The notes under the pieces are model-generated. The model was not told where the DNA came from. It searched no databases and was given only the letters and a program-made list of their open reading frames with translations. From an uncultured virus (IMG/VR IMGVR_UViG_3300044996_000468) (Duplodnaviria; Heunggongvirae; Uroviricota; Caudoviricetes): a stretch of 20,000 bases of DNA. Positions within the stretch are counted from its first letter, which is position 1. The number at the start of each line of letters is the position of its first letter. Where the stretch lies: the IMG/VR virus record IMGVR_UViG_3300044996_000468, positions 58,627 to 78,626 of that record; one strand, 5' to 3'. The position numbers and the translations under genes were made by a program. Below are positions 1 to 19,999 of the stretch, in pieces.

Positions 1-207
1 GCTTACGAGGTCGTGATCGTGAGTGAAGGTGGTTACGAGAATTTCAAAATGCAGGTGAGGAACGAGTGGGTCGTGGATCATTGCAACGCGATGTTGTGCG
101 TGTTCGACGGTTCACCCGGCGGAACGGCAAACACCGTCAACTACGCTGACCGCGTTCGCCGTGACAAGATCCGTATCAACCCTCGGGACTTTCAGGCGGC
201 CGTGTGA
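1..207 (+). CDS. C-terminal part of a SLOG-superfamily (YspA/DUF1273-like) protein, 5' truncated by the window edge
   Basis: Frame is open from base 1. Motifs KMQVRNEWVVDHC, VFDGSPGGTANTVNYA and IRINP resemble the YspA/DUF1273 C-terminus (RN..MVD.S...WDG..GGT..TV.YA). Confidence 0.7.
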   Translation, partial: AYEVVIVSEGGYENFKMQVRNEWVVDHCNAMLCVFDGSPGGTANTVNYADRVRRDKIRINPRDFQAAV

Positions 208-349
208 GGGTCGCGCGATCGAACCAAACGCAGACGTACGAACCAACGTCAGTGACCTTGGCATTCGAAGGCTGGAGCTACGACACATGACGACGTTCTT
301 AATCGGCCTTGCTGCGTTCTCGTCGGTGTTCTTGGGCACTTTTTACGAT

Positions 350-385
350 GTTGCGATCAACTTTGATCGTGACGTGGATAGAAAT
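350..385 (+). repeat. Solitary CRISPR repeat of the same family as the 10262-13735 array
   Basis: GTTGCGATC-AACTTT-GATCGTGAC-GTGGATAGAAAT has the same 9+6+9+12 layout as the array repeats. The stem is fully paired when two G-U pairs are allowed. Confidence 0.85.
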
Positions 386-427
386 CAGACCATCAACGTC
401 ACACATGGACGACATGCAGGTGTATAA

Positions 428-961
428 ATGAGTCGCGAAGACGACGACAAAGGCGAAATCGAAATCGGTGCCGTGTTCCCGGGCGGGACGCTCGAAGAAG
501 CGCAAGCCTTCGTGCAGCTCCACCTGGCGAACGGCGCCAAGTGTCCTGCCTGTGGACAATTCGCCAAGCTCTATCGCAGAAAATTGAATGCCACGATGGC
601 CTACGCGCTCGTGCTGATCCACCAGTTCTTCAAGAAGAACCCGCAACACGCCTGGATCCACGTCGCGTCGTTCTTGGTCAACACGCGTCGCGATAGCTCG
701 GTGGCAGGTGGTGATGTTGTCAAGCTCCGACACTGGGGCTTGATCGAGCGCGTCGACGGCGAGCGCGGCGATGGCAGTGACCGTGTCGGTCGGTACACGA
801 TCACGGAGCTGGGACGACGGTTCGTCGAGGGGGCGATCGCCGTTCCGCGCTACGCATATCTGTTCAATCAGATGCTCATGCGGTTGAGTGAAGAGAAGAC
901 GACGATCCAGGAGGCGTTAGGCGATCGATTCTCGTACGAAGAGCTACTGCAAGGAGCCTGA
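428..961 (+). CDS. Phage hypothetical protein, CxxC plus probable winged-helix DNA-binding fold
   Basis: 177-aa ORF with GC3-rich codons. Contains CPACGQ and a wHTH-like wing segment (HWGLIE...GRYTITELGRRFV). Confidence 0.7.
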   Translation: MSREDDDKGEIEIGAVFPGGTLEEAQAFVQLHLANGAKCPACGQFAKLYRRKLNATMAYALVLIHQFFKKNPQHAWIHVASFLVNTRRDSSVAGGDVVKLRHWGLIERVDGERGDGSDRVGRYTITELGRRFVEGAIAVPRYAYLFNQMLMRLSEEKTTIQEALGDRFSYEELLQGA

Positions 962-963
962 AG

Positions 964-1254
964 ATGAACTGCACCTGCGATCAGCGCGGCGACTTCTGCC
1001 CCGAGCATCCCACCTGCGCGTGCGGTTGCGAGCGGCACGCGCACCGCGGCAACGCCGAGTGCATCGCCGGCTCGATGAACTGCCACGGTTGTAACGCCTA
1101 CCGCCCGGCGCGGCTCAAACGCTTCCACGAGCTGTACGACCACGACCTTGAAGACATCACGTTGGATGCCCTCAAGCTCGCCTACAGAGACCTGCGCGCG
1201 CACCACATCGAAGAAACCACGGCGTTGTGGCATAGGATCACCAATCCGAAGTGA
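964..1254 (+). CDS. Small Cys/His-rich hypothetical protein
   Basis: Starts 2 nt after the previous stop. Cys-rich N-terminal half and GC3-rich codons. Confidence 0.6.
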   Translation: MNCTCDQRGDFCPEHPTCACGCERHAHRGNAECIAGSMNCHGCNAYRPARLKRFHELYDHDLEDITLDALKLAYRDLRAHHIEETTALWHRITNPK

Positions 1255-1508
1255 AGACCTACGAGACCAAGCCGTCTGAGCCGCCGACAACATGTCCCGT
1301 CCCGCGATGTGGCTACAAGCGCGTCTGGAAGTATTTCAAGTACGACCGCGTACGCGGTGGTCGTAAGCCGCCGCGTGACGGTTGGCGGGCGCACTGTGCA
1401 GCCTGTGCGGTGCTCACCGAGCTACGCCATCATAAACGCCGCGCCGAAGTACTCCAAGAACGCTGGTCGGCGATGGTAGAACCGCCGAAGCCTGTGCCGC
1501 GTCGATAG
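1251..1508 (+). CDS. Small basic hypothetical protein, possible zinc finger
   Basis: GTGA start/stop overlap with the upstream gene. Contains CPVPRC...CAAC. Confidence 0.5.
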   Translation: MKTYETKPSEPPTTCPVPRCGYKRVWKYFKYDRVRGGRKPPRDGWRAHCAACAVLTELRHHKRRAEVLQERWSAMVEPPKPVPRR

Positions 1509-1829
1509 TTCTCGTTCTGACGAAAAGCCTCGACGACGGTGAAGACCGACGACGGTGAGGACTTGCGGAATTAGTCTTGCTTTGGTGCTTGCTTTAGTGA
1601 GTGCCTTTGTGCTGTGCTATAGCTCTCGACTTCTAGGGGAACCATGGGCACCAAAATCACGGCACTTGCCAAGGCGAAAAAGATCGGCATGTACGAAGAC
1701 GCCAAGAGGGCGATCTTCGTCAACGTCACCGAAATCGACATCGAGCGCGCGACATGCTTCGCGCCCGACCAGTGCGCAATGGCCAAGGCTGCTTGCCGCG
1801 CAATTCCGAATGCGTTGAGGGCCTTCTTC

Positions 1830-3020
1830 CATGCTTATCCGGTTAACACCCCAAACGTGATTTAGACACATGAGTACCGTACTGACACATCAAGTCACGA
1901 TCTGGATGGCAGGCGACAAGTTGTGCTGAACCTCGCGAACTGGCGTAAGTACCAGCACCTGTTTGTCCCTCCGTCCGATCGCCCGTGCATCGCTGGAGTC
2001 AGCGGTGGTTCGACGAGTGGTGTGATGGCCGCGCTGCTCTCGGCTGCCGTGCTCATGTCGTTCCAGAACACGGGCAAAGAGCACGCGCTGACTTACGAAT
2101 TCCTGGAGGCGCTCGCAGATGCTATCGGTCGCGAGATTGTCTGGTTGGAGTACCGCCCGCCCGCCTCGCGCGGGGCCCCGCCTGCGGCGGCACGTTTTGC
2201 AGTCGTAACACCGCGAACCGCTGATCGTAGCGGCGGACCGTTCGAGATGATGATGATGGACGCGATCAACGCATATCGCGCAGCCATCGGTAAGGGGCCG
2301 ATCGCGCCGTGGTGGCGCTCGCGCATCTGCACGACGTACATGAAGACGCGACTCGCGCGCCGCTACGTGGAGTCGCTTGGGTGGAACGGCCACGATGAAC
2401 TAGTGGGGCTTCGTGCCGACGAGCCCGATCGTGTGGCCAAACTCCGCGTGGGCGTCCCCAAGCGAATCGGTCGCCATGCGCCGCTTAGCGTCGCTGGTTT
2501 CACGGCCAACGATGTAGCTGCGTTCTGGGGTGAGCAGTCGTTCAGGCTCAACCTGCCGCCTCACCTCGGCAACTGCACTGGATGCTTTCTAAAGGACCAG
2601 GCCGACCAAAGCCGCGCGCTCGACCAGAATGGCGACGTCGATTACTGGGCGGGTATGCAGGAGCGGCATCCGGGATTCGGCGGCAAGAATCACCCCGGCT
2701 ATCGTCGGCTCGCAGCCGAGGCGCCATCGCGTTACGCGATTGAGGCGGCACTGTTGGCCGGGCGAACGCCCGATAACGAGAACGGTATGGAGTCTCGTCG
2801 GTTCAAGCTTGTTGTCATCCAGGAGCGCAAGCGGCTAGCCGGACAGGTGGCGCCGTTCTCGTGTGCGTGCGAGGGCTCCGACGCACTAGCGCAGATGGAC
2901 GACGACGAAGAGAACGCATACATCGCATCACTACCAAGTGAGGACGCGGCATGAAGAGTGCCAATTCACAATCTAACAAGGACGGTCAGACCTGTTATGG
3001 GTGCCAACCGGATAAGCATG
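1830..3020. mobile_element. Non-autonomous TIR element (mobile-cassette-like) carrying a PAPS-reductase-family gene, no transposase
   Basis: Left end CATGCTTATCCGGTTAACACCC (1830-1851) and reverse complement of the right end CATGCTTATCCGGTTGGCACCC (2999-3020) match at 20/22. An 8-bp direct repeat CCTTCTTC lies at 1822-1829 and 3021-3028. Confidence 0.9.
1923..2954 (+). CDS. Phosphoadenosine phosphosulfate (PAPS) reductase-family / PP-loop protein
   Basis: PP-loop-like GVSGGSTSGVM, plus FQNTGKEH, RICTTYMK, VGLRADEPDR and GNCTGCFLK, as seen in phage PAPS-reductase-like proteins. Confidence 0.8.
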   Translation: MLNLANWRKYQHLFVPPSDRPCIAGVSGGSTSGVMAALLSAAVLMSFQNTGKEHALTYEFLEALADAIGREIVWLEYRPPASRGAPPAAARFAVVTPRTADRSGGPFEMMMMDAINAYRAAIGKGPIAPWWRSRICTTYMKTRLARRYVESLGWNGHDELVGLRADEPDRVAKLRVGVPKRIGRHAPLSVAGFTANDVAAFWGEQSFRLNLPPHLGNCTGCFLKDQADQSRALDQNGDVDYWAGMQERHPGFGGKNHPGYRRLAAEAPSRYAIEAALLAGRTPDNENGMESRRFKLVVIQERKRLAGQVAPFSCACEGSDALAQMDDDEENAYIASLPSEDAA

Positions 3021-3330
3021 CCTTCTTCTACGAGAATGCTGTGTACATCGCATACTACGACACGAAGACAAAGAAGAAGAGGACCTTGCGCTTCATTCCT
3101 TCACCGGAAGCGCGGAAGAACATTCATACCTTCGACACGACCGGGAAGTTCTCTCCAGGACGCTACCGGCTGGACGCACCCAAGGGTTCGGACACGCTGG
3201 CCAGCATTCGTGAGCGGAGTCGACGTCGTCCTGGTCGACATCCTCCGAGCAACAAGCCGGTGATCAAGCGCGCTGTCAAGGCTACCGTCAAAGGGCGTCT
3301 GCAGTACGCCTACGCCTACTAGCCGAGACC

Positions 3331-3792
3331 GTGAAGACCGACGACGAGATCAGTCACGCGATCGCGCGAGCACACAGCGACGAAGCCGTGTTCGCTGACT
3401 ACCTGCGCGGCTTTGGTCTCGTCGTCGATACACTCTCCCGCGGTTTTCGAAAGTCGCTCGACGACATCGCGCAGTACGCCCACGACGTCGACCTGCAAGT
3501 CGCCGGCTACGCTTGCCAGTACAAGCATCGCGGCAACGCGCGGCTCGCGTACATCGTCAGGAACTACTGGGGGCCGTTCCTCGACGAGAAGCAGAAGGCC
3601 GATCGCACGCCGGTCGACTTCTACATCCTCGACTTCACCGACGCGACAGTGATCGCACCGTATGCACCGGATCTGTGGAAAGTCCAGACCAACGACGATC
3701 GATCGGACCGAGCACGCGCGAAACAGTTCTACATCGTGAACATCCGCGACTGCGTCCAGCTGCAAGCCTGGATCGACTGGCTCAGAAGCTGA
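3331..3792 (+). CDS. Hypothetical protein, possible PD-(D/E)xK nuclease fold
   Basis: 153-aa ORF with GC3-rich codons. E in an N-terminal helix and DVDL...QYK spacing resemble the PD-(D/E)xK motif; the fold assignment is tentative. Confidence 0.6.
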   Translation: MKTDDEISHAIARAHSDEAVFADYLRGFGLVVDTLSRGFRKSLDDIAQYAHDVDLQVAGYACQYKHRGNARLAYIVRNYWGPFLDEKQKADRTPVDFYILDFTDATVIAPYAPDLWKVQTNDDRSDRARAKQFYIVNIRDCVQLQAWIDWLRS

Positions 3793-3828
3793 CGTCGAGT
3801 GATCTCGCCGCGGTTCGTTCGCATCATA

Positions 3829-3925
3829 GGCTTGACTTGTCAGGTACATCTGCGAAACGTTCAGTTCCAGTAGAGAACGGCTTGACTCGTCGAAGTCGTG
3901 CGTGAGAGGTTCAGTTCGAGTAGAG
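3829..3925 (+). promoter_or_regulatory. Tandem imperfect 50-bp duplication upstream of cas3 (putative promoter/operator)
   Basis: GGCTTGACTYGTC at 3829 and 3879, and GTTCAGTTCSAGTAGAG at 3859 and 3909. The sequence between the blocks differs. Each unit contains a TTGACT -35-like hexamer. Confidence 0.5.
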
Positions 3926-3945
3926 CGCGACAATTTAGGGAGCAC

Positions 3946-6051
3946 ATGAAGAGCACGAGGCTAGGGCCTCGGTCACTCACTGCCCGTAGGGTTCGGGACG
4001 TTGAGCGACCACTGGTCGAGGACATTCTTGCGACCGCAGATCGTGGAGCCGCTCTCGCCGTAGCGTTCGGTGCGCAGGAAACTCGCGCTGTCTGTCTTTG
4101 GTCGGATATCGGCAAGGCATCCGAGTCCTGGCAGATCCAGCAACGCGGGTCGAAGTACGGCCTACGTATTAACCATGTTGGATTAGGCGTTTGGCACACC
4201 TTACGCGTTCCCGGCATCCCGTCCATGCAACGATTGGCAATCGCTGTCGCGATCGCCGGTCACCATGGTGGTCTCCCAGACGCAAGTTACCTACCTGCAC
4301 TGGCAGATGAGAGCGCACCGCTTCGAGAGGCGCTGATCGATCTTCCCGACGAGATCACTGCCCTTCCCGTAATGCGACAACGTCGGTTCGCAAACGCGAC
4401 GCATTTGTTCATGTTCACGCAGATGATCGCGTCGGCACACATCGACGCCGACTGGCAAAACGCGGCGGAATGGGAGCGAGAAGTCTGTGGTGCGCCCATC
4501 ACACGACCTTCGTATCCGAGCATCGAACAGCTCTACCGACAGTTGGAGAGCGTGTGCAGTGACACACGGCTCGATCGGAGCGATCTCCGTACTGCGTTCC
4601 GTTTGCACTATCTAAGTGCCGCTGAACGTGTTCCGGGGTTCTATTCGTTCTCAGCCCCTCTCGGTGCGTTCAACGTCGAAGCCTTGGCGCTGTACGGGCT
4701 GGCACACGCGCGACGCAACGCACGAGAAAGGGTCATCCTTGTCTGTTCGACGCAGATGATGTTCGAAGAGTGCACAGACAAGCTTCGTGCCTCTCTCGGA
4801 GACGCATTCGCAGAGCCCGCCGCGTTCGACGTCCAAAGTTGTGGGTTCAGTCCTCGTGTCGAGACCTGGGACGCTCCTGTCGTCGTTACCGCGCTTCGAG
4901 ATTTCTTAGGGCTCCTCTTTGACAATCGTCCAGCGTCTCTGCGACGTTTCCATCACCTCGCACGCGCAGTGGTCGTTGTCGTCGACGCACAACAGATCCC
5001 GTTGCCCGTGCGCACGTTGACCCGCGAAGCGTTACAAGTACTCGTTGATCATTTCCACGCTTCGGTGTCGCTCGTGTCGGCGGTCCCCTACGGAGTCGCG
5101 GAGGACGATCGACCAGAGTTGTTGGGGCCAAAGGACGCCTTCAACACGGTCTACGGAGAGATTCAGACCACATGGCCCGATCATCACGAACCGTTACCCT
5201 CCGCCGTACAGATCGCACACGAGATCGCCGAGCACGCTGAGTGTTTGACGGTTCTCCAAGATGCATCCAGATTGCGTGAGGTAGCACAAGCGATGAGGGC
5301 GTACGTCCCCGACGTCCAGGTCACTGCCGTGTCGTCTCGGATGTGTGCTGAACATCGTCGTGCGGTGATACGTAACCTTCGTGGAGGGTGTATCATCGCC
5401 GACGAAATCGGGAGTGCTCTCGCGAGGACGTTCAATACGGTCCTGTGTGAGATGACCGAACTGCCGACCATGGCCGCTGCTGCCTGTCGTGCGTTTGGTG
5501 ACGGTCAGCGGCGTGCAAACTTCAAAGTTCTTCTCTCGACGAGACGTACGGCTGGAGCTGTCGTCACGCACCTCATGTGGCGAGGTCGTTCAACACTGGC
5601 GTTTCAGGATCCCGCAACCTGGCGCGAGTACTTTCTGGACTTGCGCTCCGGGGTTCTACCAAACGATCGGCAGTGGGCCGACGCTCGTCAGGCGGACGTC
5701 GAGTGTCTTCGGTTCCGAACACTGGCCGCGGAAATGTTGCGTGTCGGCAAACGCTGCGCGGCACCTGTGAGCCTTGGGTTGGGAGAAGCCAGCCTAGTCC
5801 CGGTCGTCGTTCCTATGCCACTGCCGAGGGGTGGCTCCAGACCGGCGACCAAAGCCTTGATCGACAGGCTTCGTGCAGACGGTTCAAGTCAAGAAATTCT
5901 ACGTCGACTCATGAGCTACGTCGTGTGGATCTCCGTCGACGAGCGCACACAACTTCTTCGCGACGGTCATGCTGTCTGGGTCAGCGAGGCCGTGGTCTAT
6001 GTGATCAACGAGCTTCTGTACGATGAATTTGGGCTGAAGCCACTAGCCTAG
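3946..6051 (+). CDS. cas3: Type I-C Cas3 (HD plus SF2 helicase), predicted catalytically inactive
   Basis: Cas3 scaffold motifs DIGK, AIAGHHGGLPD, IDADW, ETWDAPVVVT, LFDNRP..LRRFHHLARAVVV and C-terminal LRRLMSY...YDEFGL. ATG 3946 follows an AGGGAG RBS. Lies upstream of cas5c. Confidence 0.9.
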   Translation: MKSTRLGPRSLTARRVRDVERPLVEDILATADRGAALAVAFGAQETRAVCLWSDIGKASESWQIQQRGSKYGLRINHVGLGVWHTLRVPGIPSMQRLAIAVAIAGHHGGLPDASYLPALADESAPLREALIDLPDEITALPVMRQRRFANATHLFMFTQMIASAHIDADWQNAAEWEREVCGAPITRPSYPSIEQLYRQLESVCSDTRLDRSDLRTAFRLHYLSAAERVPGFYSFSAPLGAFNVEALALYGLAHARRNARERVILVCSTQMMFEECTDKLRASLGDAFAEPAAFDVQSCGFSPRVETWDAPVVVTALRDFLGLLFDNRPASLRRFHHLARAVVVVVDAQQIPLPVRTLTREALQVLVDHFHASVSLVSAVPYGVAEDDRPELLGPKDAFNTVYGEIQTTWPDHHEPLPSAVQIAHEIAEHAECLTVLQDASRLREVAQAMRAYVPDVQVTAVSSRMCAEHRRAVIRNLRGGCIIADEIGSALARTFNTVLCEMTELPTMAAAACRAFGDGQRRANFKVLLSTRRTAGAVVTHLMWRGRSTLAFQDPATWREYFLDLRSGVLPNDRQWADARQADVECLRFRTLAAEMLRVGKRCAAPVSLGLGEASLVPVVVPMPLPRGGSRPATKALIDRLRADGSSQEILRRLMSYVVWISVDERTQLLRDGHAVWVSEAVVYVINELLYDEFGLKPLA

Positions 6052-6105
6052 GTGGCTGGTCTTCCGAGCAGGTTCGCAGGGAAAGTAGGCTAGGTACGCC
6101 TTAAA

Positions 6106-6118
6106 AATCAAGGACTTA
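6106..6118 (+). promoter_or_regulatory. IHF consensus site in the cas3-cas5 intergenic region
   Basis: AATCAAGGACTTA matches WATCAANNNNTTR exactly, within a locally AT-rich patch. Confidence 0.45.
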
Positions 6119-6178
6119 CGAGTTTACTCTCGACAGAACGGACGCCTCGCGCGTCGTAGACAACAACAGGGAGAGCAC

Positions 6179-6814
6179 ATGAAACGGAGCAGTGTACTTG
6201 CACTACGCGCAATGGGGCGGCGCGCGTGTTGGACGAACCATCTTTGTCGTGTCGAACGACAGACATACGACATTCCTACGCCGTCTGGCGCTGTAGGGGT
6301 GTTCGAAGCTGTCAATTGGCATCCCGGAATGCATTGGGAGCTGCACAAAATCTGGGTACTCAAGCCCATTCAGCACTTTTCACTGCGCACGAACGAGGTG
6401 AAGTGTTTCGCAGGCCGCCAGCCAATCAACATCGACAGCAATCGGACGCAGCGCAATACCGTCGGGCTCTACGACGTCGACTACATCTTCGAGGCCAGCT
6501 TCGTACTGGACGCGCGTGCGTCTCACGACGTCGCGACCAACGAAGACATCTTTCGTCGGCGCGTCAAGAACGGTGCCTGCTATCACACGCCGTATCTGGG
6601 GATGCACCCCTTTATCTGTGACGTGATGGCGCCGCCTGCCCAGTATACGCCGATTCGCCTGAGTCGGAGTTTTGGGCGAATGTTGTACGGGTTCGACTAC
6701 ACGAATAAGAAGCCGACGCCGCTCTACTTCGAAGCCTCGATGGAGAACGGTGTCGTGCAGATCCCTTCGCGTGAATACGTTCTTCAGAACCAAGGGATCA
6801 ACCATGTTCCGTGA
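6179..6814 (+). CDS. cas5c: Type I-C Cas5c (Cas5d)
   Basis: Motifs G..ACWT..RVERQTYDIPTPSGA.G.FEA..W.P, VLKPI, RTNEVK, RTQR....LYDVDY, FRRR..G.CYHTPYLG, FGRMLY.FDY and FEA.MENGV..P. Confidence 0.95.
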   Translation: MKRSSVLALRAMGRRACWTNHLCRVERQTYDIPTPSGAVGVFEAVNWHPGMHWELHKIWVLKPIQHFSLRTNEVKCFAGRQPINIDSNRTQRNTVGLYDVDYIFEASFVLDARASHDVATNEDIFRRRVKNGACYHTPYLGMHPFICDVMAPPAQYTPIRLSRSFGRMLYGFDYTNKKPTPLYFEASMENGVVQIPSREYVLQNQGINHVP

Positions 6815-8816
6815 GTTGTACGAATTCGCCCAGCGCAACCGATTAGCAGACCCCGGCTTTCAGAATCGATTCGTCCATTACGAGATCGTCCTCGACGAGA
6901 ACGGTCGATTGATCTCAGGACATCGGATCGACGCAGAAATGCGCGCCCCCATGATGCCGAACAGGGCTGGTACCATCGTCCGTCCACAAGCTTGCATCGA
7001 ATCGGTGCAGTACATCCTTGGGCACGTCCTCGCAAAGCCGGGGGAGGACCCGCACAAGAAGCAAGAGCGTGCAGTGATTCTCTTCCGGGGACACTACGCG
7101 CACGTACACCGTATGGCGGAGGAAACCGGCGATCCCTACGCTCGGGCGTTGGCCAACTTCGTACGAGACGTCGACAATGGTGTCTATGGTCCGCCTCAAC
7201 AGGCCGCCGAACGCTGTTTGGGATGGACATCTGTCGACGAACCGCTTACCGGCAGTGAGTGGTGTGTCTTCGCCGTCAAGGAACCGGATCAGCCGAAGTA
7301 CTACATCCACGATCGGCCGGCGGTCTCACAGTGGCTTCGCGCGAACCGGCCCACTGCCGACAGCGACGTTGTTATCACATGCGCTGTGACAGGTCGCCAA
7401 GACAAACTCTGTATGACGTGGAACAAGGTCAAAGGCATTCCTGGTACGCAAGGGTCAACTCTCGTTTCGTACAACCATGCCCCGTGGACTTCCTACGGCT
7501 TCGACCAAGGGGAAAACTCCCATACGGGACGGGACACTGCAGAGGCCATTGTCGAAGGGCTCAACTATCTTCTTCGACCGGTGGAAGTCCCTTACACGCG
7601 GCGGAACTCGAAGACCGAGGAGATCGAGACGCGTGTGCGGATCAAACCGTACGGCGGCGTCTACCCCTTTAGCTTCGGTGCGCCGCAAAAAGGAGCCACA
7701 GTATTCGTTTGTTGGACGGCGGAGAAGGACGTCGAGCTGACGGTTCGTGGCGGTCTCACAGCTCTGTTCTCTGGCGGCGGCGAGGTCGAGACGTTACTCG
7801 ATATCGAACACGCGAGTGAGTCGGCCGTCGAAAAGCTACTTCGGACCGAGACGAACGATCCGCAGATCATCCACGATCTGCTCGCAGTGCATCGCACAGG
7901 TCGTGCGATGCCACAGTTCAACGAGGGCGCTTTTCACGCGTTGTTGCTCTCGGATAATCAACGCGTCGTGCCGCGCAGCACGCTGATCGGTACGATCGGT
8001 GAGCTGCGCGCCAAGATTCAAAAGTACGTCGACGACATGCGGCTGCCGACGGTCAACCGTGTTCCGCCCCTAACCAAGATCTTTGAAGCGCTTCGCGCAC
8101 GTGATCGAGAGCAGTTCACAGCAAGGACCACCGACAACATGCTGCGCTGCGTACTCGAAGGCGCCCCCGTGCCAGCTGAACTCGCAGCCGCCGCGCTCAA
8201 GCGATGCAACACCTATCCTTCCAATAAGGATGCGAGGAAACGGTGGAAGCGCCTGCTTCCGATTCGGATCAGCATCCTGAAACTCGATCTCGTCAGGAAA
8301 GGACTTGAACCACACGTGCAGAAAAATCCGTTCGACAACCTCGAAGAGACACACATCGCGAACGTACTCGGTTACGTCATGGCCGAGTGTAATCGCGTCC
8401 AACGCTGGGCCCTTGGCCCAGTGCAGCGTTCCAGCCTGTCACGCACGGACATCGTCCAGGCGCCACACAACGTACTCGCGGCGATTCTGACGAAGTACGA
8501 GAAGCACACCTCCAGTGCCAAGATCAGGAAACAATCCGGTCCGTCCAAGGAACGAATGGGACGTCTGATGACGCGACTCGGCGACGAGATGCTACCGGTA
8601 CGACTCGGTGCCGAAGAGCAGACTCGATTCTGGATTGGCTACTACACCTACGAGAGGTGGATGAAGGAGCACTTGGCGGCGAAGGCGGCGGCGAAGGCAG
8701 CTGCTCAGGCCGCTCAGGCCGCTCAGGCCGCTCAGGCTGCTCAGGCCGCTCAGGCCGACGAGGACACGGACACCGATGAAGACGTAGACGTAGACACCGA
8801 CGACATGTCCCAGTAA
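6804..8816 (+). CDS. cas8c: Type I-C large subunit Cas8c (Csd1) with an Ala/Gln repeat and acidic C-terminal tail
   Basis: Start set at ATG 6804 (MFRELYEFA), which overlaps the cas5c end. Motifs CAVTG, KVKGIPG...LVSYN...SYGFDQGEN...LNYLL, and a Cas11-like C-terminus LGYVMA...EEQTRFWIGYY. Confidence 0.92.
   Translation: MFRELYEFAQRNRLADPGFQNRFVHYEIVLDENGRLISGHRIDAEMRAPMMPNRAGTIVRPQACIESVQYILGHVLAKPGEDPHKKQERAVILFRGHYAHVHRMAEETGDPYARALANFVRDVDNGVYGPPQQAAERCLGWTSVDEPLTGSEWCVFAVKEPDQPKYYIHDRPAVSQWLRANRPTADSDVVITCAVTGRQDKLCMTWNKVKGIPGTQGSTLVSYNHAPWTSYGFDQGENSHTGRDTAEAIVEGLNYLLRPVEVPYTRRNSKTEEIETRVRIKPYGGVYPFSFGAPQKGATVFVCWTAEKDVELTVRGGLTALFSGGGEVETLLDIEHASESAVEKLLRTETNDPQIIHDLLAVHRTGRAMPQFNEGAFHALLLSDNQRVVPRSTLIGTIGELRAKIQKYVDDMRLPTVNRVPPLTKIFEALRARDREQFTARTTDNMLRCVLEGAPVPAELAAAALKRCNTYPSNKDARKRWKRLLPIRISILKLDLVRKGLEPHVQKNPFDNLEETHIANVLGYVMAECNRVQRWALGPVQRSSLSRTDIVQAPHNVLAAILTKYEKHTSSAKIRKQSGPSKERMGRLMTRLGDEMLPVRLGAEEQTRFWIGYYTYERWMKEHLAAKAAAKAAAQAAQAAQAAQAAQAAQADEDTDTDEDVDVDTDDMSQ
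8316..8816 (+). CDS. cas11: Putative internally translated Cas11c
   Basis: In-frame GTG at 8316 follows AGGAAAGGA (8295-8303) and lies just before the LG(R/Y)xxA helix, where I-C Cas11 normally starts. Confidence 0.5.
   Translation: MQKNPFDNLEETHIANVLGYVMAECNRVQRWALGPVQRSSLSRTDIVQAPHNVLAAILTKYEKHTSSAKIRKQSGPSKERMGRLMTRLGDEMLPVRLGAEEQTRFWIGYYTYERWMKEHLAAKAAAKAAAQAAQAAQAAQAAQAAQADEDTDTDEDVDVDTDDMSQ
8703..8756 (+). repeat. 6 x 9-bp tandem repeat (GCTCAGGCY) encoding (AQA)n in the cas8c tail
   Basis: Read directly from the sequence. Confidence 0.95.
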
Positions 8817-8900
8817 CTCACAAACGTCGACGACGATGTCGTCGTCGTAGATACAAATACGCACGCAACACAGAGCAGTAGAGAGAAGGGAAAGAGACCA

Positions 8901-10082
<1,182 letters not shown>

Positions 10083-10261
10083 CAACGAGCGCCTTGGTGC
10101 GAGGCGAGTTACCAGAACCGCTCGCATGATCTAACACCGCGCAAGTCCTGACGTAACACGGTTCTCTGATAACCGAATAGCAGCACAAAAGAAGCGTTTA
10201 TGGGCGTCGCTCGCTAGGCATCACCTAACGAACAGCGCCAGTTGTCTTTTCAGAAAGTGTT
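10083..10261 (+). promoter_or_regulatory. Putative CRISPR leader
   Basis: About 180 bp, non-coding and lower in GC, between the cas7 stop and the first repeat. The GAAAC 3' end of the repeats implies + strand transcription. Confidence 0.7.
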
Positions 10262-13200
10262 GTCGTGATCGAGATCGATCACGGCGTGGGTAGAAACTTG
10301 AGGTTGGGCCTCATCCACAGGCACCGCGGTCGGGGGTCGTGATCGAGATCGATCACGGCGTGGGTAGAAACAACGATCGCTACTTCGATGGCCGAACCGT
10401 CGGCGTGTTTCCTCGCGCTTGATACGTGATCGCGTCGCGATCGACAACGATCACGACGCGGATAGAAACACGCGCAACCTCCGCGTGATGCCGTCCGGCT
10501 CCCTGGGTCGCGATCGACAACGATCACGACGCGGATAGAAACGCGGCGCCCTGGACGACCTTCACCGTACGGATGACGCGGGTCGCGATCGACAACGATC
10601 ACGACCGTGGATAGAAACCTCGCAGACGCCGAGTACACATACGCGTCGTGCGCGGTCGCGATCAATCAATCTAAATCGCGACGTGGATAGAAACACCGCG
10701 GGTGGTAGCGACGGCGACGGTCCAGCACCGGTCGCGATCGATTCAGATCGCGGCGCGGATAGAAACACGCTGGACGACGGGCCTACGACGACAAGGGCAA
10801 TCATGGGTAGAAACCAGATTTCAACCACCTTGCGTGCGACAACCTGCGTCGGCAGTCGTGATCGATCAGGATCGCGACGTGGATAGAAACAACTGCAGGG
10901 AGTTGCCGTCGGGCAATTTGGTCGATCAGGATCGCGATGTGGGTAGAAACACCACGCGCGCCGCCAGCCAGCGCTCGATTTCCGCGCGGTCGTGATCGAT
11001 CAGGATCGCGACGTGGGTAGAAACTGTTCGGCGACCGCATGTGCGACGGCCTCGGGTGGTAGTCGTGATCGATCAGGATCGCGACGTGGGTAGAAACGTC
11101 GACGACGTGGCCCGGCGCGTGATCCCCGTCGACGTCGCGATCGACCAAGATTGCGACGTGGGGTCGATCACCAGCCCCGTAATCAACCGCGATCACGGTG
11201 TGGATAGAAACGTGAGCGGCGAAAAGCCGCTACTGAAGGAAGGCGTCGTGGGTCGCGCCGCGGATAAAAACAGTTCGAGTGGTGTCGTTGGTGGTGTAGC
11301 GTGCTGGGTGTCGTCGTGATCGATCGAGATCACGCCGTGGATAGAAACCTGTGCGGTCGCGCTCGCCCTACGCGAGCCCCAAGGTTGCGCAGGTACGTGT
11401 AAGTCGTGATTCGATCAGGATCGCGACGTGGGTAGAAATTACGTCGACGCAGAGACCCGCAAGCTGGTGCGCAGCGCCGTCGTGATCGATCGCGATCATG
11501 ACTCCGCTCGCGCCGAGGTTAAACCAGTACGCGACCCAGATCTCGTTGCCAACGACCGTCGTGAATCGATCAGGATCGCGACGTGGATAAAAACGCCGTG
11601 TACGGCGTCTCGCCGATCCACTCCCACGTCGTCGTGATCGATCGCGATCGCAGACGAGGATAGAAACAGCGACGGGTAGTTGATCGAACCGACGGCGCCG
11701 CTCAGTCGCGATCGATCGCGGCGCGGCGCGGCGTGGATAGAAACAAGCGGGTCCGGCTCGCGCTGCACGTGTGGATGGAGGTCGTGATCGGCGGCGGTCA
11801 CGGCACGGATAGAAACTCGGCCTCGCTCCCCAGCGACGACTGGTACGCCACCTGTCGCGATCGACAACGATCACGACGCGGATAGAAACACCGGCGACGT
11901 GAAGATGCCGACGCTGAAGAAGCTCCGTCGCGATCGACAACGATCACGACGCGGATAGAAACTGGATGATCTCGTGGCCTTCGTCGGGACGCCACGGTGG
12001 TCGCGATCGACAACGATCACGGCGTGGGTAGAAACGAAAGAAGGGGAGAAGAGTCAGGAAAGCATCCTAACCGTCGCGATCGACAACGATCACGACGCGG
12101 ATAGAAACACACGTACGAGCGCGGTCATGTCCTGCACGAATCGCGATCGACAACGATCACGACGCGGATAGAAACGGCACGGGAGAGCACTTTGAATGGG
12201 AGGGCAAGATCAGTCGCGATCGACGCGCGGGCTCATCAGGTCGTGATCGATCAGGATCGCGATGTGGATAGAAACGGTCGCCGTACCAAGACATCACAGG
12301 CGAGGTCGCGATCGATCTGGATTGCAGCGCGGATAGAAACAGGTTGTACGCCCACCCGGGCGGAATACATTGCTGTAGTCGCGATCGATCGCGACGTGGA
12401 TAGAAACCCGGTCAAACTAGGTCCACCGCACGCCGGGCCGTTGGTCGTGATCGATCTGGATCGCGGCGCGGATAGAAACAAATCCTGAACTGGCGTCACC
12501 TCATTATAGAATACGGCGCGATCGATCTAGATCGCGGCGAGGATAGAAACAGCATGGCTACTTGAGTAGTCGATCTACGCTTATCTCGCGGCGTGGATAA
12601 AAAACGCGATCACCGTTTGGCGAATCACGGAGCACTGCTCATCGTGATCGACTCAGATCACGGCGTGGGTAGAAACAAGGAAATCGTCGCGAGCGATGAA
12701 ACCTCGGGATGTCGTGATCGACTTAGGAATCGTGACGTGGGCAGAAACATCGGCGTGATCGGGACGATCATTGCGAAACTCGTGGCTCTGCATCGCCGGT
12801 GGCGGCGTGTACTTGTCACGATCGATCACAGCGTGGATAGAAACATCTGTACGTACTCGTCAGCGCGAAGCTCCGCGCGGTCGCGATCGACAACGATCAC
12901 GACGCGGATAGAAACGATGCGAGGATATAGCGGAGCCCCGGCACCGAGCGTGTCGTGATCGATCGCGATCACGTGATTGATCAGGATCGCGGCGTGGGTA
13001 GAAACGTCGCGAAGGGCCTCGCGTTCCAGGTGCGTAAGCACGTCGTGATCGATCGCGATCACGGCGAGGATAGAAACAGCGACGGCAAGCTCTACAAGAT
13101 CAGGATCGACGTGGTCGTGATCGATCGCGATCACGGCGAGGATAGAAACCGCTGGACCGAGCGCCGTCGATTTTCAACCGCCCACACGTCGTGATCGACG

Positions 13201-13735
13201 CAGATCACGGCGCGGATAAAAACGGCGCCGTCGCGAACGGAGTCGACTTCTACGGCGAAGGTCGTGATCGTCGTCGTCGTGTTGGATCGCGACGCGGATA
13301 AAAACAAGAACATCCTGTACGGCGAGATCCTGTCCGCAACGTGGATATCATCGGTGGCAGTGTCGTCGTCGAGGAGTTGTCGTGGATCGCGGTGTGGATA
13401 GAAACGCGTCGCGTGGATAGAAACACGAGATCGATCAGGCAGGCGATCTGGATCGTGGCGCGGATAAACGAAAAAAGTGCGTCTTGCCGCGACCGAATGG
13501 GCGGTGACGTCGCGATCGATCTGAATCGCGACGCGGATAGAAACGTCGCGCAGTTCCAACCGGTTGCGCTGAGCGCGATCGCGATCTTGATCAATCGCGA
13601 CGCGATCGTGGATAGAAACCAGAAGTTGAACCGTACTTCGTCGAGATACGTCGCGGCGTGGATAGAAACGCGGCAGTCATCCCGAGGCCGGTCACGACGA
13701 TCGCGATCGATCGAGATCGCGACGTGGATAGAAAC
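10262..13735 (+). CRISPR. Type I-C-like CRISPR array, about 50 highly variable repeat units; consensus GTCGYGATC-N6-GATCRCGRC-GYGGRTAGAAAC (36 nt)
   Basis: Manual count gives about 47 handle-bearing units plus about 3 without a handle. Spacers are mostly 34-40 nt with outliers. Adjacent to cas7c, with GTCG start and GAAAC end as in I-C repeats. Confidence 0.95.
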
Positions 13736-13791
13736 CTCACCAGCTGCCTTCGTGATGCGGGAGTCGTATCAAGATCTATCGGTTGCAATTA

Positions 13792-14127
13792 TCAACGACG
13801 AATGAGGCGCGGGTCTTCGACGAAACTCTCGACGGCGCGGGGGACGAAGCGAACACGACCAAACGCGTAGCCAAGACCAAGCAGCGCGAGCGCACCCGCG
13901 GCGAGCAGTAAGACCGTCGGCGGCTCGAAGAGACCGACCGGCGAGCACTGGAAGTTCTTGAGTGCCGGATCGAACTTGCAGCGGACGGTAACGTTGTCTG
14001 GGATCACAGGCATCACGATCTTTGGGTCGGTGATGACGTTGGGCGTCGCGGCCGGCGTCGTCGCGTCCTGTCCCAGACCGAAGATGTTCGGACGATCGGT
14101 CGTAGATTGAAATTGCACCGCGAGCAT
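13792..14127 (-). CDS. Small protein with C-terminal transmembrane helix and basic tail
   Basis: MLAV...FGLGQ N-terminus, a Cys pair, and hydrophobic VLLLAAGALALLGLGYAFG followed by Arg residues. Confidence 0.7.
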   Translation of the reverse strand: MLAVQFQSTTDRPNIFGLGQDATTPAATPNVITDPKIVMPVIPDNVTVRCKFDPALKNFQCSPVGLFEPPTVLLLAAGALALLGLGYAFGRVRFVPRAVESFVEDPRLIRR

Positions 14128-14211
14128 GCCGGCATTGTACGCGATCGCGCCCGCGATCGATGAACAGTGTAGGGACTACCCTGGGGATTGAAACGGCTCT
14201 AGCCTTGTTGG

Positions 14212-14577
14212 ATGTCAGGTAGCAGGCCGATCTTCGTGTTTGGCAGCAACCTCGCCGGTCGCCATGGGACTGGTGCCGCGCTCGAAGCGCGACAAAAACA
14301 CGGGGCGGTGTATGGCTGCGGCGAAGGACTTTCTGGTTACTCGTACGGGATTCCAACGAAGGATCGGGACCTTAAGTCGCGGACGCTCGACGAGATTCGT
14401 GCTTCTGTCGAGACGTTCCTGGCGTTCGCGCGTGATACGCCCGAAACCACCTACGAGGTCACGCGCGTGGGCTGCGGCCTCGCCGGCTATAAGGACCACC
14501 AGATCGGGCCCATGTTCGCCGAGGCACCGGCCAACTGCATCCTGCCGCTCAACTGGGAGCAGTACAGGCGCACTTGA
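14212..14577 (+). CDS. Conserved phage protein (IFVFGSN...GRHG.GAA family, A1S_2505-like)
   Basis: IFVFGSNLAGRHGTGAA, YG.GEG..G.SYGIPTK, VTRVGCGLAGY and MF...P.NC.LP..W. Confidence 0.8.
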   Translation: MSGSRPIFVFGSNLAGRHGTGAALEARQKHGAVYGCGEGLSGYSYGIPTKDRDLKSRTLDEIRASVETFLAFARDTPETTYEVTRVGCGLAGYKDHQIGPMFAEAPANCILPLNWEQYRRT

Positions 14578-14614: not shown

Positions 14615-14986
14615 ATGGGCAAAGATCTTTTTGGAATCGGTGACAAGCCTGGCGCGAACGATGACGACGGCGACGAGATGGAGCATCCGGGCTACGTCAT
14701 CATGCAGCTCATCCCGGCCGAGGGCTGGCGAGCTGTATTCGAGGACACTTCTGGCCAGCCGTCTCGTATCCTCGGCGTGGCGTGTTTCGCGCTCATCGAA
14801 GTCCTGGGACAGAACCTACCCCCCGACATGCCGCCGCTTCGTGTGCCGCGCCCGATGATCGTCGACGAAACAGGACAAATCGAAGACGTCGAGGCCTTCG
14901 ACGACTTCGTTTGTATGGTCCCGCCGGGTGGCGACGTCGGCCTCGCGCTGGCGGGCCTGGCGCAGATCGAGAAGGCCGGTCGGTAG
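14615..14986 (+). CDS. Acidic hypothetical protein
   Basis: 123-aa ORF with GC3-rich codons, abutting the next gene. Contains IMQLIPAEGWRAVF. Confidence 0.7.
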   Translation: MGKDLFGIGDKPGANDDDGDEMEHPGYVIMQLIPAEGWRAVFEDTSGQPSRILGVACFALIEVLGQNLPPDMPPLRVPRPMIVDETGQIEDVEAFDDFVCMVPPGGDVGLALAGLAQIEKAGR

Positions 14987-15841
14987 ATGTCGCTCCGATC
15001 GCGACCTCCGGTGGATAATCGGACGCCGGTCATGAAGCGCGAGGAGGAGATCTCCCTGGAGAAGCTCTCCCTCGGGTGGCCATGGGTCGACGCACGTAAC
15101 GCCGCCGCGCTCTCATGTGAGTTGATTCGATGGGTGATGCCTGCGCCGATGTGGGTTCCTGCTGATGATCCGCGCGTCGACGTCGTCAACCAACACCTCC
15201 GTGCGGAGGTATCCGAAAACGGTCCGTACCGGACGCCCGGCGACCAGAAGATCAACATCGATCCGCCCGAGGTCACCGAAGCACGCTTCGAAGTCGCGAA
15301 CATCCTCGCGTACCTGTCGCGCTACGTTGCCGGCGAACCGATCGTCATCCCCAAGGACTTCGGCGAGCCTGACGATCCGCCGATGAAGAAGCTCTACTGG
15401 TACGCGACAGAGATCGGCAAGCGCGCGGCGAAACACGGCCAGATCGCCGGTGAGACTGTGGCACGGCTCGGACTCGCACCGCCGAGCAAGACGTGGCTCG
15501 GTGGATCGACGCCCTGGTATCACACCGGTCATGCTGCCGAAGAAGCGTGCGAGTTTCTGCGTAAGCACGCCTCGGCGAGCCAGACGGTTGGCATGATCGA
15601 CGGTGCCGGCGGTGCGGTCCTACATCGTCTGAGCTGGCACCTCGCGTTTACGGGCAAGCCATCTGAAGAGATCACGGGGCGTATCTTCCACTGGCGTGTT
15701 CGCGATGCACTGCGCGGTAGACAGCTCAACCCGACGATGGAAGCGAACTTGCGGCCCGCGTTCGAGGCGGCGTGGATGTCGGGAAATTTCGATTTCGCGT
15801 ACTCGCTCCTGACCGACATCGAGCAGTTCGCAGAGCGATAA
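14987..15841 (+). CDS. Hypothetical protein
   Basis: 284-aa ORF directly after the upstream stop, with GC3-rich codons. The start may be a later Met. Confidence 0.7.
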   Translation: MSLRSRPPVDNRTPVMKREEEISLEKLSLGWPWVDARNAAALSCELIRWVMPAPMWVPADDPRVDVVNQHLRAEVSENGPYRTPGDQKINIDPPEVTEARFEVANILAYLSRYVAGEPIVIPKDFGEPDDPPMKKLYWYATEIGKRAAKHGQIAGETVARLGLAPPSKTWLGGSTPWYHTGHAAEEACEFLRKHASASQTVGMIDGAGGAVLHRLSWHLAFTGKPSEEITGRIFHWRVRDALRGRQLNPTMEANLRPAFEAAWMSGNFDFAYSLLTDIEQFAER

Positions 15842-15842
15842 G

Positions 15843-16184
15843 ATGCGACGGTGTCGTGCATGTCATCGACGCGGACACGACCGTCGAAACTGTCCACGAC
15901 CGATCTACCCACGAAAGCGCCCCAGAGAACAGCCATACGTTGGGCTCGACGAGTACATCCTCAAGCACCTCGGTCGTGTTCCTGTAACGAGCAGCGTTCT
16001 GCGTGAACGCGTCGCGGATGACTTTGGCTATGTCGGTGAGCGGACGTTTCTCAGGTGCCTCAGGGCCCTGCGTGAAAGCGACCGCTTGACGGCGATCCGA
16101 ATCTTCGACGGGACGGCGTGGTTTCTGTACACACGGAAGGCAACAGGGCGCGAATTGTTAAGCGTCGGCCAGTTGGCAACGTAG
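15843..16184 (+). CDS. CCHC zinc-knuckle plus probable winged-helix protein
   Basis: CRACHRRGHDRRNC is an exact CX2CX4HX4C. It is followed by a wHTH-like segment (ILKHL...GERTFLRCLRALRESDRL). Confidence 0.6.
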   Translation: MRRCRACHRRGHDRRNCPRPIYPRKRPREQPYVGLDEYILKHLGRVPVTSSVLRERVADDFGYVGERTFLRCLRALRESDRLTAIRIFDGTAWFLYTRKATGRELLSVGQLAT

Positions 16185-16227: not shown

Positions 16228-16839
16228 ATGCTCGCCGTCACCTACTCGGGTTCTGGATTTGGTCAAGCCGGCTGCCCTGCCGGTCAGCACTCGTTCACGT
16301 TCCCGTGGGGCGTGAACACGTGTGTTGCCGACGACGCCGCACCGCCCGATACGAGCGCGATCTCTGCGGATTCGACGCCAACGTGTGCGGCGGGTCAGCA
16401 TCTCTTCACGTTCCCGTGGGGCGTGAGCACGTGCGTGTCGGACGACGCACCAGCCATCAACGTCAACGCAACGTCGCCCGATCAGACACCACAGTGTCCG
16501 GCGGGTCAGCACCTTTTCACGTTCCCGTGGGGCGTGAGCACGTGCGTGTCGGACGACGCACCAGCCATCAACGTCAACGCAACGTCGCCCGATCAGACAC
16601 CACAGTGTCCGGCGGGTCAGCACCTTTTCACGTTACCGTCGATCGGGCTGCTGCCTCCGGTGATGCAGTGCCAGCCGGATGTCGTACCCTCATCGAGGAA
16701 GTTCTTCGACGTGAAGAACCCGATCATGTGGGCGACGTTCGCGGGTGGTGCGGCCGTCGTCGGCCTCGGTATCTACGCGTTCAGATCACCCAAGCCGACC
16801 ACGGTTGCAGGTCGCCGTCGTCGCCCACGTCGCCGCTGA
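16228..16839 (+). CDS. Membrane-anchored protein with about 3.3 copies of a 37-aa Cys-containing repeat
   Basis: CPAGQHLFTFPWGVSTCVSDD... repeats, then a C-terminal TM segment (IMWATFAGGAAVVGLGIYAF) and an Arg-rich tail. Confidence 0.8.
   Translation: MLAVTYSGSGFGQAGCPAGQHSFTFPWGVNTCVADDAAPPDTSAISADSTPTCAAGQHLFTFPWGVSTCVSDDAPAINVNATSPDQTPQCPAGQHLFTFPWGVSTCVSDDAPAINVNATSPDQTPQCPAGQHLFTLPSIGLLPPVMQCQPDVVPSSRKFFDVKNPIMWATFAGGAAVVGLGIYAFRSPKPTTVAGRRRRPRRR
16273..16632 (+). repeat. 111-bp intragenic tandem repeat
   Basis: GCGGGTCAGCA recurs at 16390, 16501 and 16612. Units 2 and 3 are nearly identical. Confidence 0.9.
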
Positions 16840-19468: not shown

Positions 19469-19999
19469 TCATGAGAGCGCCCCTCCTGCAAACGGTCTTA
19501 GATTCGTCCACGATTTTCGAAGACGGATGCGGCTCACCATGACTGCGCTGACATTCAAACGTTTCGCGACCGAAGCCGCCGTTTCGCCGTGTTCCATTCG
19601 ACCGAGGGCTTCATTGGCAAGATCTTCGGTCAGTTTACACGTTCGTCGATTGCGGCCTTGTGCATCACGCGACGCCCATACGCAGTTACCCGGTTCGTAG
19701 TTGCCGTTGTTGTTTCTGCGTTCGATCGTCATCCCGTATGGACGCTCGCCCATGTCGGTTAGGAACGATTCAAAACTGTTACGCCAACGATCACAGATGC
19801 CGATCCCACGTCCGCCGTAGTCCTTCCAGTTTGGATTTTTGGAGTTGGTGCAACGTTGAATGATCGAACACCACGTTTTGTGCGTTGGCGATCCAGATCG
19901 ACCATGCGTGGTCAGACGATCCGTGTTCGTTTCAGGCTGCAAACAACCACACGAGTTGGTGCGAGCGCCAAGATCTTGACCGACTCGTATACAAGTCGT
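19469..19999 (-). CDS. Phage HNH-type (homing) endonuclease with C-terminal HTH, 5' truncated by the window edge
   Basis: SCGC, THG, W..IIQRC, YGGRGI..C.RW..FE.FL.DMGERP..TIER.NNNGNYEPGNC.W. The frame stays open to the window end. Confidence 0.88.
   Translation of the reverse strand, partial: TTCIRVGQDLGARTNSCGCLQPETNTDRLTTHGRSGSPTHKTWCSIIQRCTNSKNPNWKDYGGRGIGICDRWRNSFESFLTDMGERPYGMTIERRNNNGNYEPGNCVWASRDAQGRNRRTCKLTEDLANEALGRMEHGETAASVAKRLNVSAVMVSRIRLRKSWTNLRPFAGGALS

Follow-up and report, generated by a model that had tools for sequence, protein, structure and literature searches.

The locus described here is best explained as a virus-borne derivative of CRISPR-Cas type I-C (CRISPR, short palindromic repeats that are clustered and regularly interspaced; Cas, CRISPR-associated proteins), devoid of adaptation genes and maintained by selection. 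It lies in a stretch of 20,000 nucleotides (hereafter the window), positions 58,627 to 78,626 of the IMG/VR record IMGVR_UViG_3300044996_000468, which belongs to an uncultured virus of the Caudoviricetes; the window is the final 20 kb of this 78,626-bp record. An operon with the order cas3-cas5c-cas8c-cas7, all on the + strand, precedes a CRISPR array, and type I-C models gave the best match for all four proteins, so that the intact open reading frames (ORFs) reported in an earlier note on this DNA are confirmed. We tentatively propose, with slightly less than even confidence, that the system mediates RNA-guided DNA binding without processive degradation. The operon and array comprise the following features:

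3946..6051, + strand: cas3-like gene, 701 aa from the ATG at 3946, with an open frame reaching back to a GTG at 3898; full-length Cas3c homolog
6179..6814, + strand: cas5c, 211 aa; TIGR01876, E 3.1e-32
6804..8816, + strand: cas8c, 670 aa from the ATG at 6804; 11-nt overlap with the end of cas5c
8655..8813, + strand: C-terminal tail of Cas8c, residues 618-670
8901..10082, + strand: cas7c, circularly permuted according to its alignments, 393 aa; PF05107
8981..9024, + strand: (CAACGG)7.3 tandem repeat, coding for (Asn-Gly)n in the N-tail of Cas7
10083..10261, + strand: 179 nt between the cas7 stop and the first repeat, defined by position only
10262..13735, + strand: CRISPR array, 46 units ending in GGRTAGAAAC

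The Cas3-like protein is recognizable over its full length by the PADLOC Cas3c model (PDLC01765, E 3.7e-60, residues 12-697). Pfam detected part of the HD domain only and left the helicase domain unseen, and TIGR01587 (cas3_core) had no match anywhere in the phage genome, with a positive control. Canonical type I-C Cas3 combines catalytic superfamily 2 (SF2) helicase motifs with an HD nuclease, a combination that the phage protein does not show. Alignment to the Neisseria lactamica Cas3 (8G9U_P, 8ZNS_A) and to metagenomic Cas3 proteins revealed the following substitutions:

Walker A: canonical PTGGGKT, here APLGAFNV
Motif II: canonical DEAQ, here VDAQ
Motif III: canonical TATQP, here SAVPY
Motif VI: canonical GRCNREG, here CRAFGDG, with the second Arg replaced
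HD dyad: canonical HD, here SD
Motif I of the HD domain: canonical AHS, here with the His lost

The description of this Cas3 as dead-looking in the earlier note is thus borne out by the changes in Walker A, motif II, motif VI, the HD dyad and motif I. These changes are also not private to one sequence. An exhaustive HMMER search returned as the closest relatives P0143 (39% identity, 694 aa), P0144 (36%, 705 aa) and P0145 (31%, 660 aa). In an alignment of 146 full-length relatives, the Walker A Lys-Thr was missing only in the phage protein and these three, which form one clade, while three other relatives carried AKT or SKT. The DE of motif II was absent only from the phage protein, P0143 and P0144, and the HD dyad only from the phage protein and P0143, save for three truncated or misaligned rows. 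All four clade members are 660-717 aa long and have a clade-specific insertion that is not found in canonical Cas3. Judging from these motifs, the clade is a conserved family of Cas3 proteins predicted to be helicase-dead, with a nuclease that appears clearly impaired in the phage protein and P0143; for P0144 and P0145, impairment is less clear.

The state of the HD domain bears on a rival explanation, which we consider unlikely, namely that DNA would still be cut in a non-processive manner, either by the HD domain nicking the displaced strand or by Cascade recruiting a host Cas3 or a phage nuclease. Five conserved positions of the HD domain are kept in the phage protein (H93, H122, H123, D183 and D185), and both P0144 and P0145 keep the HD dyad, so that some members of the family may still nick DNA; many HNH endonucleases are also encoded in the genome, one of them at 19469-19942 of the window. 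However, the His of motif I and the His of the HD dyad are both gone in this Cas3-like protein and in P0143, family scans of the operon ORFs found no nuclease gene inside the operon, and the HNH genes are scattered in the manner of homing endonucleases. Recourse to a host Cas3 would moreover leave no reason to conserve a dead one.

A second departure from type I-C concerns the backbone subunit. PF05107 matched Cas7 with 181.7 bits (E 2.5e-53), the match being split in two stretches, and the protein scored below the TIGR02589 cut-off (176.7 vs 182.25). In phmmer alignments to the solved chains 8G9S_B and 7KHA_B, residues 57-248 correspond to solved-chain residues 84-283, and residues 286-358/371 to solved-chain residues 2-77/4-93; likewise, residues 294-339 map to positions 6-51 of the TIGR02590 profile. 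Cas7 is thus homologous to Cas7c/Csd2 with its segments in a different order and, as read from these alignments, is circularly permuted relative to the solved I-C Cas7, in agreement with the earlier note. The protein is laid out as a basic Gly/Asn-rich N-tail (1-60), the canonical core (57-248), a linker (249-285), the canonical N-terminal block (286-371) and an acidic C-tail (372-393). The old termini are bridged by the linker of 37 residues, and the new termini fall in a loop between two helices. An AlphaFold2 model built from nine sequences had a mean predicted local distance difference test (pLDDT) score of 61, with disordered tails and most core blocks at 60-88, and its best Foldseek matches were I-C Cas7 chains over ~200 columns.

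Eight metagenomic homologs (P0005-P0012; 42-47% identity, 77-84% coverage) have the same segment order, a Lys-rich (Gly-Asn)n N-tail and an acidic C-tail. Among the matches listed, all remaining Cas7 homologs were canonical Csd2 covering about half of the query. The permutation is not an assembly artefact, since contigs of four further runs cover cas7 without any difference except in (CAACGG)n, the sole place where contigs of other runs differ. A search for loci that join the permuted Cas7 to the dead Cas3, as suggested in the earlier note, succeeded in part: homologous proteins of each were found, but no second locus was recovered. A pattern specific for the permuted family matched none of the species genomes in genome_contigs; generic Cas7 patterns led to 128 loci, of which 0 were permuted, 54 canonical and 74 undecided; scans of viral_contigs returned this phage and canonical I-C loci, nothing else; generic peptide patterns in the metagenome scan gave 80 loci, all canonical; and P0142, the closest Cas5c homolog, retrieved 27 canonical bacterial loci from genome_contigs.

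The remaining two proteins of the predicted complex are closer to their families, and both are modified. Cas5c scored 112.4 bits against TIGR01876 (cut-off 85) and aligned with 8G9T_N and 7KHA_A at E ~1e-29, and no Cas6 family match was found among the window ORFs scanned. The locus therefore pairs a Cas5c of the Cas5d family with the lack of Cas6, as type I-C does. At or beside the catalytic site, the phage residues compare with 26 bacterial homologs as follows:

N46: F in 25, L in 1
W47: W in 26/26 (kept)
H48: K in 26
T120: K in 22, A in 4
N121: Y in 25, F in 1

All four positions other than W47 are changed in the phage, which upholds the claim of altered catalytic positions in the earlier note (N46/H48/T120/N121 vs F/K/K/Y). 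In the accessible text of PMC8524198, Tyr50, Lys120 and His121 are catalytic in the Streptococcus mutans Cas5c and Lys52 is important; the Y/K/H triad is given there for S. mutans and Bacillus halodurans, with Lys as its sole invariant residue. A loss of processing by the phage Cas5c is a reasonable guess from these residues, but the sequence by itself does not settle whether activity is gone, since 4 of the 26 bacterial Cas5c proteins likewise have no Lys.

Cas8c is a Cas8c/Csd1 large subunit according to PF09709 (199.6 bits, cut-off 27; E 1.2e-58) and the PADLOC Cas8c model (E 1.1e-54), with a score below the NCBIfam equivalog cut-off (158.2 vs 218.65). Its residues 54-617 of 670 align to the Desulfovibrio vulgaris Cas8c (8DEJ_I), and nothing aligns past residue 601 of the 612 residues of 8DEJ_I, in line with the tailed Cas8c of the earlier note. 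The tail of 53 residues is Ala/Lys/Gln-rich and then ends in an acidic Asp/Glu/Thr-rich part, and a tandem repeat of 9 nt (GCTCAGGCC x6.1; 8703-8757) encodes part of it. For an internal Cas11 start, Met526 of Cas8c has no Shine-Dalgarno-like motif.

Such motifs do precede the preferred starts of all four genes, where a GGGAG- or AGGGA-like sequence stands 6-10 nt upstream; for the ATG at 3946 of the cas3-like gene, the motif is GGGAG. The database gene calls are shorter (Cas3 with 608 aa from Met110, Cas5c with 161 aa from Met51) and have no Shine-Dalgarno-like motif at those positions. Because homology extends upstream and the motifs are found there, the longer forms of Cas3 and Cas5c are favoured; automatic annotation with the short starts truncates Cas5 at its N-terminus and removes some of the HD domain. 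Adaptation genes are absent not only from the window, as stated in the earlier note, but from the whole genome: Cas1, Cas2 and Cas4 (PF01867, PF09827 and PF01930) had no match in the complete 221-kb genome, with positive controls in 7, 6 and 8 of 14 genomes, respectively.

The array is the only one in the phage. With up to 1 mismatch allowed, 43 of the 52 whole-genome matches to GGRTAGAAAC are inside its 3.5 kb, and no second array was detected. The estimate of about 50 units in the earlier note was fair, with 46 units plus handle-less remnants, although part of the array is eroded; its variable loops in 36-nt repeats were found again upon folding and comparing the repeats. Well-formed 36-mers make up 26 of the 46 units (18 distinct sequences), the other units having indels or a lost 5' stem. 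Of 18 repeats that were folded, 14 gave a hairpin of 8-10 bp followed by a free 12-nt tail, and the four others, all degenerate, did not. Stem cells were paired in 93.8%, and the loop columns varied most. Several stems stand without a handle, and broken units are scattered throughout the array rather than clustered at one end. Subtypes defined by the loop occur in separated blocks, with ACAA in units 3-4, 21-22, 24 and 35, and ATCAGG in units 9, 11-12 and 26, from which we infer that the array is a patchwork of repeat subtypes built by recombination. Between well-formed repeats, most spacers have lengths of 35-38 nt, and they do not repeat one another; 42 spacers measure at least 20 nt. Either the 179 nt ahead of the array could serve as a leader or the operon and array could share a transcript; a promoter scan found nothing in this stretch, and the promoter and terminator scan was uninformative overall.

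Canonical type I-C arrays consist of near-identical hairpin repeats ending in ATTGAAAC, whereas the phage repeats differ from each other and end in ATAGAAAC. All 49 arrays examined beside canonical I-C loci had ATTGAAAC, and none had ATAGAAAC. Given that the handle is unlike that of all these arrays and that Cas5c retains Trp47, which stacks on the handle, the comparison suggests a private match between CRISPR RNA (crRNA) and protein. The handle is also central to a counter-defence explanation, in which the altered Cas proteins would act as dominant negatives that poison a host I-C system and the repeat-rich transcript would soak up host Cas proteins. In favour of it, a phage carries the locus, and two of the proteins have lost catalytic residues. 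Furthermore, RNA anti-CRISPRs made up of repeats are known, among them some for I-C (accessible text of PMC10651486; PDB 9JHB), and dominant-negative Cas proteins are described as plausible but almost unknown in the part of a review available to us (PMC11656645). Nevertheless, a decoy should mimic the host, and poisoning needs neither a full Cascade gene set nor 42 different spacers. We therefore regard this explanation as improbable, and the decoy idea put forward in the earlier note is weakened by the distinct handle, the full Cascade gene set and the non-repeating spacers. Identity with an RNA anti-CRISPR (Racr) or solitary repeats was rejected on similar grounds, given 46 units with spacers beside a full Cascade gene set and a handle unlike that of canonical I-C.

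Few sequences outside the array resemble its repeats. A search of IMG/VR with the repeat motif returned this phage and one further match at chance level; this match stands alone in an unrelated contig of 59 kb (L178:6001-6021, - strand), spans 22 nt of the commonest repeat's 3' part and has no hairpin partner. That contig has no other similarity to the phage, and ~0.7 such matches are expected by chance according to a rough estimate, which still allows for a solitary repeat unit. In the window, a lone canonical I-C handle end, GGATTGAAAC, is found at 14185-14194, 450 nt beyond the array and without a preceding hairpin, probably by chance. Rfam yielded two chance-level matches only and no CRISPR repeat family.

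A further explanation is that a I-C system was captured and that the locus is its decaying relic, now without function. The missing adaptation genes, the lost catalytic residues, the heterogeneous and partly broken repeats and the failure to find a spacer target would all fit a relic, which we nonetheless hold to be very unlikely. All four ORFs are intact and have Shine-Dalgarno-like motifs, and full-length homologs at 31-47% identity share the peculiarities of Cas7 and of Cas3, which neutral decay would not preserve; the conserved families thus argue against decay. The locus is also unchanged over time. Each of 11 lake-water metagenome runs contained at least 74% of the sampled words from window positions 6000-14300, and the operon and array were identical, barring (CAACGG)n, in the contig pieces listed from four lake-water runs dated 2018 and 2025. 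An array that is identical in 2018 and 2025 fits a static guide set, with the proviso that contigs hide rare variants. The proposal of coordinated change instead of decay in the earlier note is therefore supported by eight Cas7 homologs, three Cas3 relatives without the Walker A Lys-Thr and a handle that differs from 49/49 arrays.

Based on these results, we propose a theoretical scheme in which guides direct DNA binding and no processive degradation follows. A working crRNA-guided complex is suggested by the set of genes, by a handle and hairpin that are conserved and by Cascade proteins that are conserved as well. The operon and array would be transcribed together, and Cas5c, Cas8c and about seven permuted Cas7 subunits would assemble on crRNAs bearing the phage-specific ...AUAGAAAC handle; Cas11, made from the 3' part of cas8c, would probably join the complex. 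The complex would then locate complementary DNA and open an R-loop. The Cas3-like protein would dock but would not hydrolyze ATP, so that DNA would be neither reeled in nor shredded, the HD site being impaired as well; processive cutting is not expected because the Cas3 partner is predicted to be unable to translocate. The non-cleaving role suggested in the earlier note would fit these lost helicase and HD residues. That a dead Cas3 has been kept implies that docking itself may be useful, for example by locking the R-loop or blocking access. The outcome would be a stable, guide-directed occupancy of target DNA, belonging to the host or to competing elements, that blocks its transcription or replication, in a mode of action akin to that of type IV-A, type V-M or engineered Cascade for CRISPR interference (CRISPRi). 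Without renewal by Cas1-Cas2, the guide set would be static. That the complex assembles, that the dead Cas3 docks and that binding occurs without cleavage are steps that we infer, as are the biological targets. A more specific form of the proposal, possible although rather doubtful, is that of a virus-specific I-C lineage rebuilt as a natural 'dead-Cas3 Cascade', with a permuted and tailed Cas7, an inert docking Cas3, a handle that changed together with Cas5c and made the system private to the phage, and ~40 fixed guides silencing host or rival genes during infection.

Several results weigh against this scheme. The HD dyad is retained in P0144 and P0145 and the DE of motif II in P0145, so the loss of these motifs does not extend to the whole Cas3 clade. 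The phage Cas5c is without the residues used for pre-crRNA cleavage, which leaves crRNA maturation unexplained. The pairing of a dead Cas3 with a permuted Cas7 is known here from this phage alone. In the array, stem covariation of the repeats was no higher than in shuffles, and 17 of the 46 units have no in-register 5' stem, which looks like erosion. Finally, mapping of spacer targets, recommended as a check in the earlier note, gave no protospacer in the phage itself, GenBank phages, PLSDB plasmids or the 2.2 Mb of loci examined, and the guide function is thus unproven. The best spacer match in the phage genome was 19 nt long with 1 mismatch and lay within a repeat remnant; the best matches in GenBank phages and PLSDB plasmids had E values of 0.3 and 0.08, respectively.

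Comparison with known systems places the locus close to, but outside, canonical type I-C. The systems of D. vulgaris and N. lactamica (PDB 7KHA, 8DEX, 8G9S-8G9U) have the same cas3-cas5c-cas8c-cas7 order and no cas6, a repeat hairpin followed by a tail of 11-12 nt ending in GAAAC, and homologs of all four proteins. The phage locus differs from them in having no cas1, cas2 or cas4, a degenerate Cas3, a permuted and tailed Cas7, a tailed Cas8c and the residues N/H/T/N in Cas5c, and in its 36-nt, non-identical repeats with the ending ATAGAAAC instead of ATTGAAAC.

The closest prior report is that of I-C variants in huge phages (Al-Shayeb 2020, PMC7162821), and as far as the text of that report goes, the system described here is of the same kind. 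Those variants have no Cas1 or Cas2, carry a helicase where Cas3 would be and show changed active-site residues in Cas5, and phage systems without a nuclease were proposed in the same text to repress without cleavage (PMC7162821). The huge-phage origin, the lack of Cas1, Cas2 and Cas6, and a Cas5d-like Cas5 with changes at the proposed active-site residues are shared with our phage. In contrast, the published variant has the helicase and a second, CasPhi system, whereas the current locus has a degenerate Cas3c homolog and a single array; the passages compared make no mention of a permuted Cas7. The suggestion that the combination of features is unreported consequently stands only in part, given these earlier I-C variants. 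No description of a circularly permuted Cas7 was found in the literature searched, with many subscription papers outside the search, and the papers that combine Cas7 with circular permutation concern the Cas10 HD domain instead. Within the same limits, and as far as the accessible texts go, no natural conserved inactive Cas3 was found to be described, the literature matches being engineered mutants.

Types IV-A (with DinG) and V-M (with Cas12m) are likewise borne on mobile elements, have no adaptation module and are predicted to bind rather than degrade, according to the available part of PMC11656645. Their proteins (Csf and Cas12m) are unrelated to those of the phage, and type IV-A needs an active DinG helicase, whereas a dead helicase partner is predicted for the phage. 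CRISPR-associated transposons (CASTs) of type I (I-F, I-B and I-C) also use a Cascade without Cas3-mediated degradation, but their cas3 is deleted and they reside in Tn7-like elements with TnsB and TniQ, whereas the phage keeps cas3 in a dead form. Identity with a type I CAST was rejected, as cas3 is present and the genome had no match to PF00665 (rve), for which the control was positive in 6 of 14 genomes; a TniQ search was uninformative, its control being without any match. Vibrio phage ICP1 encodes an active type I-F system that is complete, its adaptation genes being present and its Cas2/3 functional, and this sets it apart from the system of our phage.

The conserved tails raise one more alternative, in which the guide module would serve another activity, such as RNA-guided transposition, or would have its acidic tails recruit a partner. 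Apart from the basic and acidic tails of Cas7 and the acidic tail of Cas8c, a gene of the neighbourhood could be taken to favour it:

1923-2954, + strand: gene resembling PAPS (3'-phosphoadenosine 5'-phosphosulfate) reductase; phrog_424, E 7e-31; weak PF01507 and PADLOC SspD matches

This gene is ~1 kb upstream of cas3, and a parallel may be drawn with type IV-B loci, in which a CysH-like protein of the PAPS-reductase superfamily is encoded (accessible text of PMC11656645). However, the family is frequent in phages, so that the adjacency may be meaningless or due to chance, and the genome encodes no rve-type transposase. We give this alternative very little credence, and RNA-guided binding without processive degradation remains the reading that we pursue.

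Concerning the phage itself, a second record (G001; 221,422 bp, CheckV completeness 100%) represents the same phage. Its terminal 7,515 bases equal window positions 1-7515 and its first 80 bases equal 7521-7600, while its positions 155282-175281 are identical to the start of the record that holds the window (G000). Both ends of G001 are inside cas8c, the 5 bases at window positions 7516-7520 are absent between them, and the record is classed as linear. Because the window bridges both ends of G001, the phage genome is a ring or circularly permuted, with a size of ~221.4 kb. Its G+C content is 61%. The DNA upstream encodes phage replication and packaging functions, including a DNA polymerase with a LAGLIDADG insert, ribonucleotide reductase, helicases, a primase and a terminase-like protein, and family scans of the flanks agree with the phage-like neighbours pointed out in the earlier note. 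A Pfam scan of 150 further ORFs of the phage left the majority without a family name. GenBank phages gave no DNA match to this phage, and the terminase-like protein matched two distant uncultured GenBank phages only, which offers no clue to the host.

Several other elements were observed in the genome. The 13 tRNA genes form two clusters (L012:8645-13957 and L013:16295-19678, in G001), five tRNA-Leu genes standing consecutively. In the upstream part of G000, the LAGLIDADG homing-endonuclease insert occupies residues 239-415 of the DNA polymerase (L003:9799-13554, - strand) and is intein-like, as is a long insert that splits the ribonucleotide reductase small-subunit ORF (L003:16935-18917, - strand). 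Free-standing HNH and LAGLIDADG endonuclease genes are numerous. In the window, the neighbouring ORFs 2951-3322, 3319-3945 (- strand), 13769-14356 (- strand) and 14615-16184 had no family match in scans of window ORFs, nor had an open frame of 511 codons antisense to cas7 (8592-10127, - strand), which is most likely a by-product of the high G+C content. A 111-bp tandem repeat (2.3 copies, 97% matches) is found at 16383-16639; the alignment to G001 shifts at this repeat, with 99.2% identity downstream, and its copy number is seemingly unlike between the two assemblies.

If the proposed scheme is true, the locus would provide the first Cas7 with a natural circular permutation as well as the first family in which an inactive Cas3 is conserved, and would merit a subtype-level variant of its own. 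In type I systems that do not degrade their target, such as CASTs and some phage systems, cas3 is deleted. Long retention of a cas3 without helicase ability would instead imply that Cas3 has a role on Cascade, be it structural or regulatory, that to our knowledge is undescribed in nature. The backbone fold of Cascade would be seen to tolerate new termini at the helical tip between its two blocks, which would be useful for fusions to every backbone subunit. An array without upkeep by Cas1-Cas2 would be one of non-identical repeats, in which the handle and hairpin are conserved and the loops are free to vary. Overall, if the targets are host genes, the array would amount to a phage-encoded guide library for host takeover.

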